DNA of 60,498 nt, the filler included, from Catajapyx aquilonaris (Eukaryota): assembly GCA_000934665.2 (NCBI GenBank). It is 3 parts of 3 records of this genome, joined end to end, with 100 filler letters (N's around TTAATTAATTAA, not from the genome) between each part and the next. Parts side by side here need not be neighbours in the genome. Positions count along the whole stretch, not along the records: positions 20,203 to 40,302 come from JYFJ02006334.1; 2 more parts are not named here. One strand, written 5' to 3'. The notes beneath the pieces were generated by a model, which searched no databases, was not told the DNA's origin, and saw nothing but the letters and a program-made list of their open reading frames with translations. Shown here in pieces: positions 23,089 through 28,783 of the stretch (its first letter is position 1; every line of letters begins with the position of its first letter). The translations under genes and the position numbers were made by a program.

Positions 23089-24470
23089 ATGTCTTTGGTT
23101 GCAAAACCACGGGGTGAGCATCTAAATAGTTAAATTATTGAAGAGTACGTTATTACGTGATATGTACAATCGCATAGGTCGAGGCCGTCCTCCGAAGCCT
23201 CGTCCTGCTGCCTGCCTGCACTGCGGAGAGAGCAAGAAGACTCTCCAGTACGTCCTACCCACGCCGACAGGGAAGAAGCCGTTTTGCTCACCCACCTGCC
23301 TCGCGGGATTCAGGAAAGCTACTACTAAGGTGGTAATAACTGCGGTTATGGTCGCATGCAATTCAACTTAATTTTCATGCAGCCAACATGTGTCGAGTGC
23401 AAGTTGATGATTCATGGGCCGTCAGTCCCCCTGGAGCAAAGTGGAGAAACGAAGGAGTTTTGTTCCACCGACTGCCTTGTCAAGTTTCAAAAGTGGGACT
23501 TGGACCCAAAGGATCGGAAGGAGCCTTCACCTGTTGCCAAGCCACCAACCAACCATCAGACGCCATCCAGCCAGTCCCCGAACCACAATGCTGAACCAGT
23601 CAACCTCCAGCCCCGCATCGTTTCTGCACCAATATGCCGGCCTCCGCTTGGCTTACCTGCACAGCCGGTCACAAACCACAGGGGTCGAGGCATGTCTGCC
23701 AACACACGCTTCAGAGGGACAGCCGCTGTGCGTAGCAGGGCACCACATCTGGCGTTACAAAGTAGAAGACTTTTACCAAAGAGTGGTACATTTCCTTTGC
23801 ACTGTTGTTCACTTGCGGATGAACTAATTCCATGGTTTCACTAGGTATCAAGGAGGTGAACGGCCACTCATCCTCAGATGGTTCTGAGCCTGAAGCCAAG
23901 CTGATGAGCAACGAGAGAGAGTCATCACCTGCCATATCAAAGCCCCAGCCAACATCCGCCATCTCTCCTACCCCTGCCGTTGGAAGTACCCTCGCTCGCC
24001 TACTTACCCCTGCTTATACACGATCACCCTCGCCACTTACAGGTCCCACTCCTGTCCCTATCTCCGCTTCTGTCCCTCCAACTGTCCCTGCCGTCACAAA
24101 CTCGTCTCCTGCCATTAATCGCATCCCTTCCAATAATACTGCGCTCGATCTCCAACCGCTCATACGACGACCATGTGGGGATCCGACCGACTGGACTTTC
24201 ATCCAAGTCATAGAGTTCATCAGTTGTGAAGATCCGAGCCTCAAGATTCATTCTGATATCTTCACAAGACACGTATGTTGCTTCTCTTCTCTCTGGTGTG
24301 CTGTCCGCCCAGAAAACATTAACAAGAGGTTATCTTTCCAGGAGATTGACGGGAAGGCTATGCTTCTACTGAGCTCGCAAATGATGATGAAGTACATGGG
24401 GCTCAAACTGGGGCCAGCACTCAAGATATGCAACATCATCAACAAAGTCAGGACCAACAAGAAGTTGTAA
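23089..24470 (+). CDS. Short Scm-like Polycomb paralog: 2 FCS zinc fingers + SAM/SPM, no MBT or SLED (378 aa)
   Basis: Exons 23089-23113, 23178-23329, 23383-23785, 23845-24272, 24342-24470 (1137 nt, open, GT-AG). FCS1 CLHC..LQYVLPTPTGKKPFCSPTC; FCS2 [50 protein letters not shown]. All four intron positions are shared with the downstream Scm. Confidence 0.85.
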
Positions 24471-24530
24471 AGAAGAGCGTGCAACAGTGTGTACAGAAAA
24501 GGATCTCAAGATTTTTTGCTCATAACATAT

Positions 24531-24717
24531 GAAGACCTCGTGGGAAGAATGATCCAAGATCAGGCGAAACTGAGATAATCCAATTTTGAAGGCCTCGTTG
24601 TAAATCACGCTTGACCTACGATCATTATTCCACAACCACGACCAAAACCATCATAATTATTCTACACTTGTGAACTTTACGAAAAGTGGACCTTGATCAT
24701 TCTTCCCCCGAGGTCTG
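24531..24717. repeat. Short inverted repeat (possible old MITE or 3' UTR hairpin)
   Basis: AGACCTCGTGGGAAGAATGATC vs GATCATTCTTCCCCCGAGGTCT just downstream of the short Scm-like stop. Confidence 0.4.
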
Positions 24718-25836
24718 CATGTGAAAGACTGATCCGCAAGTGTTCAAGTCATAGCTACGTTCCTACTGCCAATTGGACGTCTCCTTATACCCTACAGCAA
24801 AATATATTTTGTGTGATATTTATTTTAATCTAATTTTTCATAGTAGTTGCTTAGTACATGAAGTGCAGCCGGCTTAACGGATGTATTTTAACCAGCCAAT
24901 TTCTGCAACAGTATTAGCTCATGATGGAGCCGAATTTTATTTTACAGTGCAGTATATAAATTTTTTGGTAATATTTGGAACAGGTTGTACTCGTAATATC
25001 AATACATGACATATTTGTGATCTTATTTTTTTGCCAAACTTTTTTTTCCCCCCTGTAATTTGAATCGCCCACTCCAGCCCTTCAACCATGTACAGTACTG
25101 TGCCGATAGGGGGAATGAGCCACTATGTAAAGGTCGGACCTTTTAAGGCTCCACACCCCAAGCAGGAGACAGCACGTGGTATGTTCGGATAACCTGATTC
25201 GCAACCTCTGGAATGTTGTCCCAAGAAAACGTTCTCCGTTGGGAGCAGATTTTTTTTCGAAATTTATGAAAATGAGGCCTCCCCCTTTTTTTTGGATAAT
25301 TTTCTTTTGGTTAGTCGACCACTTCCACTAACCGAAGGAAATTTATCAACAAAAAAAACAACAAAAAAACAAAAAAAATACCTCATTTTCAGCCAATTTC
25401 CCCCCCGTGCGCAATGTGACTGAAATTTCAGATCGCACATGATTTTTTAAAACAATTGTAAACTCAATAAAGGATACTGAGACATATTTTGTTAATTTTT
25501 TTTTTCCTAAAATTTTTGAATTGCCTGCCAGCCCACGCGCCGGCTGATGACGTCACAATCAGGCCCGCCTCCTAGTGGCCTCCTCCCGAACTTTCTTGTG
25601 TCTCCCTCTGCATTTTTTTTTTCATTACCATTTTTCCCTCTACTTGAGTTACTTTGGTTGGGCGACCATCCGAAGCCGCCACCGTCACATAGCCACACCA
25701 ACATGTCGGTCCTGGGCTGGAAGGCCCAACACTACCCAGGAAGAAACCACCACAAAGTATGTGGCCATTAAATCAACCACAAGCAGCAGAGTAATTGAAC
25801 TTTTTACATTACGCAGGTACTGGCAGGCGACTGACC

Positions 25837-28783
25837 ATGTCTATGCCAATGTCTACTACCGTCAAGCACAGAGGTAGGTTCATTAGTGTATGCTCATAGA
25901 GTACGACCTGTACGTAATGTATTGCAGGGCCTGGTAGGCCGCCCAAGATCCGTCCTGGGCCGGCGTGTATGCACTGCGGGAACACGAAGCATCAGCGGCT
26001 CCAGTACGTCGCGCTGACGCAGAATGGGAACAAGGAGTTTTGTTCGCCTGCTTGCCTTAACGAGTTCAGGAGGGCGGACGTTAAGGTTCGTTCTTGCACG
26101 TACTCGTAATTAAAAGTGCTGATCGCATTACGACAGCCAACACCAAGTCGGATCAATATTTGCAAGGTTGCGTAAATTATGCAGTGGTCATTAAATCTGC
26201 GAGCTGATCAAGCGTACAAATGTAGTTCAAACAGTTTGAAAATTCTGTTTTTCCTACCAGCCAACCTGTACCCAGTGTGAGGTGGTTATACAGGGTCCGT
26301 CCGTTCCGCTGGAGCAAGCCAAACATGGTAAGGACTCCTGCCTCTTCTGCTCAACTGACTGCCTTGTTAAATATCAGAGACGGGACGCGGATGGTAAGGA
26401 GGGGAAGGACCCTTCGCCGTCTCTGTCCCCCTCGCCAGCTGCCTCTCCGTCACGCTCACCATCTTCCGCGTCCTTAACCAATCCTGCTCCCACCACTCCT
26501 GCCGAAGTACCGAGTCGGAAGGGTGCGCCGACAGTCCCGCGGGCTGCTCCGCCTCCAATGTTCAAATGGGAAGAGTACCTGCAAGAGACGGACAGCATCG
26601 CGGCACCTCCAGAGTACTTCAGGCAGACCATGACTCCGCCGCTGGTCAAGTTCAAACCCGGGATGAAACTAGAGGCGCTTGACCCCCGCAATCTGACCTC
26701 CACATGCATATCAACAGTCGTAGGGATTCAAGGCTGCCGGCTGAGGTTGAGGCTGGATGGGTCGGACAACAAGAACGATTTTTGGCAGCTGGTAGACTCC
26801 AACGAGATCCACGAGGTCGGACACTGCGAGCGTAATGGAGGGATGCTCCAGCCGCCATTGGGATTCCGGATGAATCCGTCGTCTTGGCCACAGTTTCTCC
26901 AGAAGACTAGGAATGGAGCGACCATGGCACCTGCAGACATATTCAACAAGGAGCCGCCAGCGCCAAGGCACAACCGGTTTCAAGTGGGAATGAAGTTGGA
27001 GGCAGTGGATAAGAAGAATCCGCATCTGATTTGTGTGGCGACAGTCGGGAATGTCAATGGGGAGATGATTCACGTCACATTCGATGGGTGGAGAGGTGCT
27101 TTCGACTACTGGTGCCGGTATGATTCGAGGGATATTTTTCCAGCCGGTTGGTGTGCCGCCACAGGACACCCTTTGCAGCCACCGCAGCAGAAGTGTAAGT
27201 GTTTGTGTGTATATCGTGAACGCTGTTGAATTAATGTTTAATCATATTTCAGCTGTCACTGCATCGAGCAGGTACAAAGCCCCAGTGTTCAACGTCCCCC
27301 CCCCTTTAAATTCACCCACTCTGCCTGGAGCGAAGGAAACATCCTCATCTTCAGTCCCACCAGCATCATCATCTGGATCATCATCAGCATCGTCTACATC
27401 ATCGGGAGGACACAAGTCGCCCAACATTACCGTCACTGAACCAGACACGTCAAGTATTCCTAAGCAAAACTCTCAAGGTGAAGCACGTTTTAATTCATCG
27501 AATATATTTCCTTTTGCAATACGTTTGCGAGTGAAATATGTTGCAATCAGTTGGAATGTGTTGCAATAACATGATATTGCTGCAAGTTCTGTTGCATAAT
27601 TCACACTGCATAGTAATGAAGATTTGCATGCGGTTAGGATTTCAAGGCCATGTGCTTTGAATAGCAGTTGCGTTTCATATATAAGGATTAATAATGCGTG
27701 ATTTTAATTTACCGGTGTTTAATTACAGTGTGCGTGTATGTGAACCACACGTGTACATGTGGTCCTTACCTGGATCCACGTAAAGTTGGAGATCTCCCGA
27801 TGCAGTTTGGCCCTGGATTGATGAACCGAGTCCTTCGAGAAGCTGTCCAGTCCATAGTGGACTCCTCCCTGGACCCCAAGCAGATGCTGGGACTAGTGAG
27901 GCAAGGGGAAGGGAAGGTGATCGTGAGCGCCATCATGTCTATCCCCACCCACACCTCACCTTTTGAGGCTACCAATCACCCGCCCAAAGAGCACCACATC
28001 ACCACCAGACTCCCTGCCATCAATAAGGTCTCGGAATTCTGGAGCTTTCTGGAAGTACTCTTCGAAGACATCATGTGCTGCGAGAACTTTTACACCAGCC
28101 AGCCGCTCGGGCCGCCTGGATGTAGCAAGTGCTCCAAGCAGGGGGCGTCTGCACCACCGCAAAACAGAGGGAGAGGTAAGAATAGTTTGCTTCGTTTACA
28201 ATAACATTTTAACTCCGGTACGTTCTGTGCAGATGACTGCGATGGGCTGAACGGCCATTCGAGCTCAACGAGAGAGAGTAGTGTTGGTGAAAAGAGGAGG
28301 TGGTCTTCATCCGACGGACCGCAGTCGAAGCCTAGTAAACAAGCTTGTAGAACTCCGAGTGGATTGGCAGGTAGCGGAGCGACTTCTGCAGCTTTAGGGA
28401 AGGTTCCTACTGAGCAGGAGGCTGCGACTTCGACCACCACCAACCCTGATCCTCTTCCCCAACCACCTCCACCAGCACCAACTCCACCGCCCACTGGAGA
28501 TCCTGCCGAGTGGACGATCCCACAAGTCATACGGTACATCAGCAATATGGATCCAGCCCTTGGAGTACATTCGGATCTTTTCAGAAGACACGTACGGTAC
28601 CACCTTCCATTACAGGAGGTTACATTTTAACACACAATGTGTTTCTGTCTATAGGAGATCGATGGGAAGGCCATGCTGCTGCTTAACTCGGACATGATGA
28701 TGAAGTACATGGGGCTCAAGTTGGGACCTGCACTGAAGATATGCAACATCATCAACAAGGTTAAGACCAACAAGCGTCACTGA
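25837..28783 (+). CDS. Scm: Polycomb protein Sex comb on midleg, full-length (2 FCS, 2 MBT, SLED, SAM; 762 aa)
   Basis: Exons 25837-25873, 25928-26085, 26261-27194, 27253-27477, 27729-28175, 28233-28591, 28655-28783 (2289 nt, open). MBT motifs [39 protein letters not shown] and [88 protein letters not shown]. Confidence 0.95.

Follow-up and report, generated by a model that had tools for sequence, protein, structure and literature searches.

A tandem Scm paralog reduced to FCS fingers and a SAM domain in Catajapyx aquilonaris is probably a functional, hub-only member of the family

Recent work has made Scm a central component of Polycomb assembly, with its SAM domain tying PhoRC to PRC1 (Polycomb repressive complex 1) and an FCS zinc finger tying PRC1 to PRC2.1. 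Paralogs of Scm that have lost domains are already known as a kind, and the closest described analogue of the gene analyzed here is mammalian SCML1, which resides on the X chromosome 15 kb from SCML2, has a C-terminal exon structure in common with it, and shows a ratio of nonsynonymous to synonymous substitution rates (dN/dS) of 1.17 in primates (PMC2459175). Here we describe a pair of Scm-family genes in a stretch of 60,498 nucleotides, filler included, from the arthropod Catajapyx aquilonaris (assembly GCA_000934665.2; hereafter, the window), in which a short gene (gene A, mini-Scm) lies directly upstream of a full-length Scm (gene B). Gene A adds an FCS+SAM-only form to the known domain-loss paralogs. 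As our leading but still tentative interpretation, we propose that it is a functional, lineage-specific tandem paralog of Scm whose product would serve as a "hub-only" subunit of Polycomb assemblies, a reading suggested by its retention of the hub modules of Scm and of none of the modules that touch chromatin directly.

The resemblance to SCML1 extends to several features. Both genes are truncated, keep the SAM domain, stand in tandem with a full-length family member, and conserve the C-terminal exon structure, and in both the SAM domain evolves faster than in the full-length neighbor. An earlier note on this DNA had drawn the parallel with SCML1, and it proves closer than was claimed, given that SCML1, too, adjoins its full-length relative with shared C-terminal exon structure (PMC2459175). 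The two differ in composition: mammalian Scm homologs have no FCS fingers (PMC13746325), SCML1 among them, and the bat SCML1 entries contain SLED and SAM according to precomputed Pfam annotation, whereas gene A has FCS fingers and no SLED. They also differ in rate, with 1.17 for primate SCML1 against 0.17 for the A/B pair, a pairwise value that gives no sign of positive selection of the SCML1 kind. SCML1 is known to be expressed in testis.

A second point of comparison is Polyhomeotic (Ph), of which the C-terminal module (Mini-Ph) and the short PHC2 forms, like gene A, combine an FCS finger, a disordered linker and a polymerizing SAM. Mini-Ph (HD1-FCS-linker-SAM) suffices to bind DNA and to form condensates, and the authors of that work raise the possibility that FCS and SAM might let Scm act likewise (PMC7644731). 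Unlike Ph, gene A has two Scm-type FCS fingers and no Pfam match to HD1, and the Ph SAM matches its SAM only at E 7e-5. Gene A is not a Ph relative in the narrow sense.

Gene models were built from open reading frames and splice boundaries (GT-AG) over positions 23000-24700 and 25700-28900, and Pfam scans were run on single-exon translations. Both genes are on the plus strand. Gene A extends from an ATG at 23089 to a stop codon at 24468-24470 and consists of five exons; gene B, with seven exons, extends from an ATG at 25837 to a stop at 28781-28783 and encodes 762 amino acids (aa). The spacer between them (24471..25836) is 1,366 bases long, in agreement with the earlier description of a same-strand Scm-family pair about 1.4 kb apart. 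Exon 1 of gene A (23089..23113) contributes the ATG and 8 codons, ends in phase 1 at a GT donor, and parallels the homologous first exon of gene B, which has its own ATG (25837..25873; ..PRG in A, ..HRG in B). Exon 2 (23178..23329) encodes FCS finger 1 (CLHC...FCSPTC; zf-FCS, E 1.1e-4), and exon 3 (23383..23689) encodes FCS finger 2 (zf-FCS, E 9.3e-5) followed by a Pro-rich tail that reaches NHRGR. Exon 4 (23845..24272) opens near NGHSSS, which it has in common with exon 6 of gene B, and continues through a Ser/Pro/Thr-rich linker into the first half of the SAM domain, identified by alignment to the Drosophila Scm SAM. Exon 5 (24342..24470) encodes the second half of SAM and the stop codon, with 37 of 42 residues identical to gene B.

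Gene B has the full Scm architecture of two FCS fingers, two MBT repeats, SLED and SAM. Its FCS finger 1 (exon 2, 25928..26085) scores below the curated Pfam cut-off (zf-FCS, E 0.001) and is recognized by its Cys ligands. Exon 3 (26261..27194) encodes FCS finger 2, a linker and both MBT repeats (MBT, E 4.6e-58, in two stretches); exon 4 (27253..27477), a Ser-rich linker with no Pfam match; exon 5 (27729..28175), the SLED domain (E 6.8e-31), ending in ..QNRGR at phase 1; exon 6 (28233..28591), NGHSSS, a linker with the motifs KRRWS and ATSTT, and the first half of SAM; and exon 7 (28655..28783), the second half of SAM (SAM_1, E 7.5e-6) and the stop codon. The Pfam matches of gene A are limited to SAM_1 (E 2.6e-5) and the two zf-FCS domains, which score at or slightly over the curated threshold; in particular, no exon of gene A matches MBT or SLED. 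The eight zinc-binding Cys (CxxC...FCSxxC, twice) are all present in both genes. A tblastn search with residues 166-585 of the gene B product detected no relic of MBT or SLED near gene A at E<5, and a tblastn search of the whole window with gene B revealed no third Scm copy. The description of the upstream gene as an FCS+SAM-only copy beside a full-length Scm is upheld.

The two genes also share their intron positions, as had been pointed out in the earlier note. Three of the four introns of gene A interrupt the same residue in the same phase as their counterparts in gene B: intron 1 of both genes (phase 1, after ..PRG / ..HRG), intron 2 of both genes (phase 0, after ..TK / ..VK), and intron 4 of A, which corresponds to intron 6 of B (phase 0, after ..RH). 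For the fourth, the acceptors are nearly equivalent, that of A intron 3 lying 5 codons and that of B intron 5 lying 6 codons before NGHSSS, both in phase 1.

The donor of intron 3 in gene A is less certain, and the predicted length of the protein, between 346 and 378 aa, depends on it. The site that matches the gene B donor, immediately after NHRGR, reads GAG|GCATGT, that is, a GC donor that otherwise copies the donor of A's own intron 4 (GTATGT); the exon 3 end at 23689 presumes its use, which yields a GC-AG intron of 155 nucleotides (nt; 23690..23844) and a protein of 346 aa. In gene B, the SLED exon closes with QNRGR, and the counterpart donor comes after this motif. The exon 3 frame runs open until a TAG at the acceptor, and phase-1 GT donors at 23732, 23762, 23783 and 23786 are also available, moving the end of exon 3 to 23731, 23761, 23782 or 23785 and giving 360, 370, 377 and 378 aa, respectively. 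The 378-aa model uses the donor GTG|GTACAT at 23786 and an intron of 59 nt, a size similar to that of most of the introns in this pair (53-69 nt). All these options preserve the frame and the same domain set. Accordingly, the earlier statement that the upstream copy is a fully open 378-aa gene stands with respect to the open frame, whereas the length applies only with the GT donor at 23786, the other donors giving 346 to 377 aa.

The same region bears on how the middle domains were lost. The earlier note suggested that MBT and SLED had been excised internally, and both domains are indeed absent from gene A, but comparison of the DNA does not demonstrate a deletion. As proof of internal deletion, we considered and rejected an alignment of the tail of A exon 3 with the tail of the B SLED exon, the score of which was reached by 208 of 300 shuffled sequences. 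The proposed link of NHRGRG in A with QNRGR, with which the SLED exon of B ends, is based on a four-residue motif and the common intron phase, from which it is plausible that the tail of A exon 3 is a relic of the end of the SLED exon left by a clean internal deletion.

To place the pair, we aligned the FCS and SAM parts of A, B, 24 arthropod Scm proteins, chosen for taxonomic spread among the 120 matches listed, and a short whitefly protein (27 rows, 177 columns), and constructed a maximum-likelihood tree. In this tree, A and B are sisters with support of 100/99, a placement that points to a lineage-specific duplication. The conserved columns contain ten derived states common to A and B, and several changes, such as CxHC for CTWC, FCSP for FCSE, PTC for GAC, KAM for KAL, and CNIINKV, are found in both genes and in none of the 24 orthologs. 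The duplication of Scm thus arose in the organism's own lineage, and the grouping of A with its neighbor also bears out the suggestion that its origin was independent of SCML1. Gene A, like Drosophila and other arthropod Scm from which it descends, has two N-terminal FCS fingers and a Scm-type C-terminal SAM; unlike them, it carries neither MBT nor SLED nor the KRRWS and ATSTT linker motifs, and it is half the length of Scm or less. Over about 99% of its length, the MBT exon of gene B shares 54-63% identity with arthropod Scm, to a like extent for insects, crustaceans, centipedes and horseshoe crabs, and none of the searches yielded a closer match.

The divergence of the pair shows that the duplication is old. 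Pairwise comparison by the Nei-Gojobori method (NG86) over 175 alignable codons gave a dN/dS of 0.167 (bootstrap 0.076-0.267), from a dN of 0.252 and a dS of 1.508; the bootstrap range of dS was 1.0-2.8, hence saturated. At the nucleotide level, A and B are 86% identical in the last exon and 65-73% identical in the other shared exons, with none in introns or flanks. Such divergence also bears on the possibility that gene A is an artefact of assembly, in which a mis-join or collapse would have deprived a second full-length gene of its MBT and SLED exons. Exons that are 65-86% identical next to introns and flanks without similarity are far too diverged for one gene assembled twice, and the junction at which the missing domains would have stood is in frame, within a continuous exon of normal Pro-rich sequence. 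In addition, one public sequencing run contains 70% of the sampled words of 23000-28900, although this run is possibly the source of the assembly itself. Altogether, we consider mis-assembly very improbable.

Within the alignable codons, the distribution of change speaks for purifying selection. The ratio was 0.15 for the N-terminus and FCS1, 0.13 for FCS2, 0.34 for the first half of SAM and 0.09 for the last exon, and 51 of 67 SAM residues are identical between A and B. The 42 codons of the last exon differ at 13 synonymous and 5 replacement sites, exactly as counted in the earlier note. In a neutral simulation of the A coding sequence, with substitutions only and a 346-codon frame, the share of runs with an unbroken frame was 5.7% for K=0.1, 0.5% for K=0.2 and 0.05% for K=0.3, and none of 2000 runs preserved it at K=0.5. 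The proposal of a selected mini-Scm is therefore supported on both counts, by the low pairwise ratio and by a frame that remains open in at most 0.05% of runs at K>=0.3. If 77% of the change at the protein level, and half of that at synonymous sites, is assigned to A, dN/dS would, roughly, be near 0.26 for A itself and near 0.08 for B. In the FCS region, columns conserved among the orthologs show 4 changes specific to A and 6 specific to B; taken together with the corresponding counts for SAM, given below, these numbers suggest that gene A is constrained but more loosely than gene B, mainly around SAM. As a separate observation, the last exons (24342-24470 and 28655-28783) have a dS of about 1.0 as opposed to about 2.1 in the other shared exons; this higher similarity could stem from old partial gene conversion or from codon constraint.

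The SAM domain of gene A is of the Scm type. Compared with solved structures, it matches the Drosophila Scm SAM at E 2.5e-20, far ahead of Ph (7e-5) and Sfmbt (2e-4), so that the earlier assignment holds and a grouping with Ph is not what is found. According to the structural work of Frey et al., the mid-loop residues of Scm that contact Sfmbt are H832, E833, D835, A838, L841, L842, M846, K849 and Y850, and mutation of the end-helix leucines L855 and L859 stops polymerization (PMC4863741). Both A and B have all 11 of these contact residues in the published state, as do essentially all of the 24 orthologs. The FCS fingers link Scm elsewhere. In the work of Yesil et al., the Scm FCS finger contacts Pcl's Tudor domain within PRC2.1 through Y75, L77, P78, E89, I92 and R96, and the charge reversal R96D abolishes binding (PMC13746325). 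The earlier note had ascribed the links of Scm with PRC1 and PhoRC to SAM-SAM and zinc-finger contacts; these links run through SAM (PMC4863741), whereas the FCS finger has a different partner, the Pcl Tudor domain of PRC2.1 (PMC13746325).

The Pcl contacts were placed on the alignment by means of the spacing Y-x-L-P-(10)-E-x-x-[IL]-x-x-x-R, to which all of the orthologs conform. FCS finger 1 of gene A reads Y, L, P, Pro (in place of E89), L and R, with five of six positions, R96 included, in the state typical of the orthologs. The corresponding finger of gene B (25928-26085) reads Y, Ala (for L77), Leu (for P78), Pro (for E89), L and R, that is, three of six. Among the orthologs, the P78 position is Pro in 23 of 24, and the L77 position is Leu or Phe in 23 of 24. 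The short copy is thus nearer than the full-length copy to the ancestral Pcl-binding surface.

From these features, we propose the following mode of action for gene A. The protein would consist of two docking modules, the N-terminal FCS pair and the C-terminal SAM, on a disordered Pro/Ser/Thr-rich linker, with MBT and SLED lost. The SLED domain binds DNA. Through its mid-loop surface, the SAM domain of A would be bound by the SAM of Sfmbt in PhoRC; its end-helix surface would bind the Ph SAM in PRC1, and it would co-polymerize with full-length Scm. FCS finger 1 probably still docks the Pcl Tudor domain of PRC2.1. Gene A could then bridge Polycomb complexes without adding methyl-lysine reading, and it would change the reader content and the valency of the assembly, the former being lowered, rather than simply block it. 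Each of these binding events, and the net effect on repression, is a prediction from retained residues and domains.

A division of labor between the copies can also be imagined, in which gene A would be the main paralog for docking Pcl and PRC2.1 and gene B would have specialized in chromatin contacts through MBT and SLED. This idea comes from the retention in A of Y75, L77, P78, I92 (as L) and R96, where B has L77 replaced by Ala and P78 by Leu, and we rate it as rather unlikely. Were it true, it would be a distinct gene, devoid of readers and under its own regulation, that links PRC1 with PRC2.1, and similar separation-of-function alleles may have arisen independently in whitefly and mammals.

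The same surfaces would also serve a competitive antagonist. Under this alternative, an off-chromatin mini-Scm would titrate the SAM domains of Ph, Sfmbt and Scm, and perhaps Pcl, or cap the polymers, and thereby weaken repression, possibly in a single tissue or stage. The SAM surfaces of gene A are intact with MBT and SLED gone, and, as described in PMC4074974, a SAM-bearing SCML2 mutant released from chromatin lowered PRC1 occupancy, leading to the proposal of a dominant-negative effect. Furthermore, the periphery of the A SAM has changed faster than that of B (8 changes against none), as expected if affinities for partners were being retuned. On the other hand, both FCS fingers are constrained (dN/dS about 0.13-0.15) and most of the Pcl contacts are kept, all of which would be needless for a pure SAM decoy. 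The constraint on the FCS fingers therefore weighs mildly against a pure decoy, and the present data do not distinguish a decoy from a bridge in other respects. In our estimate, antagonism is unlikely, although it is the chief alternative.

Several observations weigh against the interpretation of gene A as a functional hub-only subunit. Transcription of gene A and its splice junctions are predicted from sequence, and the 995 bases downstream of its stop codon contain no canonical poly(A) signal. The branch leading to A in the tree (0.72) is 3.3 times as long as that leading to B (0.22). The dN/dS values are pairwise, so that how much of the constraint falls on the branch of A itself is an estimate. 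In the SAM domain, ortholog-conserved columns show 8 changes specific to A and none specific to B; the A-specific N843S and E845Q (Drosophila numbering) flank the mid-loop surface, and A has Pro in place of E89 in the interface with Pcl. Two linker motifs conserved among arthropod Scm orthologs, KRR[WC]S (in 14 of 24) and A[TS]STT (in 18 of 24), are both present in B, and the A linker (window 23845-24150) has neither; we know of no function for either motif. Finally, no ortholog of gene A was found in other species across protein, HMMER and metagenome-locus searches.

Some of these features, namely, expression that is predicted, the long branch and the loss of the two linker motifs, along with the GC that replaces GT at the homologous donor of intron 3, would also be expected if gene A were an untranscribed relic, decaying or lately dead, with an open frame left over from earlier rather than present constraint. 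We consider this improbable, given that no stop interrupts the frame despite a dS of about 1.5, when the simulated chance of such an outcome is at most 0.0005 once K>=0.3, and that all 8 zinc ligands, all 11 SAM contacts and every other splice site are intact.

The missing poly(A) signal relates to another alternative, under which A and B form one complex transcription unit, either with the A exons serving as alternative 5' exons of B or through co-transcription, and the mini protein is one isoform. The genes are on the same strand only 1,366 bases apart, and the first AATAAA/ATTAAA past the A stop is at 25466, 996 bases downstream, compared with 220 bases past the stop for a signal in gene B. 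Moreover, the phases of A exons 1 and 2 fit those of B exons 2 and 3, such that cross-splicing would be in frame. However, gene A has its own start codon, conserved SAM exons and a stop, and B begins with a homologous first exon of its own that supplies an ATG. Constraint on the A SAM exons (dN/dS 0.09 in the last exon) implies that they are translated, and this in turn requires a transcript specific to A. A single transcription unit thus strikes us as a poor explanation, and, like the dead copy and mis-assembly, it is less likely than a functional hub-only paralog, which we still favor.

The distribution of comparable genes was explored by several searches. When exon 3 of gene A was compared with longer proteins, none of 16 candidates reached E<=0.001. 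The C-terminal part, compared with proteins of 113-363 aa, produced 117 matches, the best being 49% identical, of which a single one, a whitefly protein, has FCS and SAM without MBT. An exhaustive HMMER search of representative sequences gave 367 matches, none at E<=1e-30, and Pfam annotation of 30 proteins chosen by length (172-536 aa) among the 150 HMMER matches listed showed the mini layout only in that whitefly protein. With regard to synteny, 42 metagenome loci contain a Scm-like MBT region and none contains a second set of FCS or SAM; only one of them (L001) has over 9 kb of upstream sequence. As that locus is hymenopteran-like and no close relative, this negative result is weak.

The whitefly protein (Bemisia tabaci XP_018903994, P0020 in our set), annotated as "polycomb protein Scm-like", is 229 aa long and, according to Pfam, contains one FCS finger and SAM only. 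It is 44-57% identical to the whitefly's own full-length Scm (P0236) and groups with it at 81/77 rather than with gene A, so that it is a true paralog of whitefly Scm, derived independently of A. The contigs on which these two whitefly proteins are recorded have the same length. As in gene A, its FCS part runs straight into an exon starting near NGH; it differs in having one FCS finger instead of two, in keeping the ATSTT motif, and in carrying Ser at the Pcl-contact position R96. In a comparison of language-model features, offered as a lead only, its nearest clusters were short polyhomeotic-like 2 proteins with zf-FCS_1 and SAM (score 0.88). We found no description of an arthropod Scm paralog with FCS and SAM only, XP_018903994 included, in the literature searched, coverage of which is incomplete for subscription journals.

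Taken together, MBT-less copies of Scm beside a full-length gene appear to have at least three origins, in this lineage, in whitefly, and in mammalian SCML1, and this threefold recurrence suggests an adaptive route rather than an accident. Gene A, which is probably a real and functional hub-only Scm paralog, would be a natural, constrained separation-of-function variant in which two docking modules are kept and the histone and DNA readers are dropped. Such a variant offers a means of asking if bridging by itself matters biologically and in what way SAM assemblies adjust their content of readers. For genome annotation, it follows that "Scm-like" models of short length next to Scm are not necessarily fragments.

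The surroundings of the pair contain three recognizable genes, all on the minus strand: a multi-C2H2 zinc-finger protein (34543-35682), a protein kinase (40681-41540) and a formin (FH2; 51377-53258). None of these neighbors is duplicated, which implies that only the Scm gene was duplicated. At 17375-18526 of the window, about 4.5 kb upstream of gene A and likewise on the minus strand, there are open frames with parts of a Mos1/mariner-type transposase (HTH_48, Transposase_1, DDE_3).

An additional observation concerns the top database match to the C-terminus of gene A, a 192-aa protein (P0001) that is an unspliced frame on a 1,843-base contig from another organism. It contains a Scm-type SAM and then, some 20 residues further on and with no intervening stop, a second copy of the first half of SAM, a possible sign that SAM exons, or Scm-like genes, stand in tandem elsewhere too.

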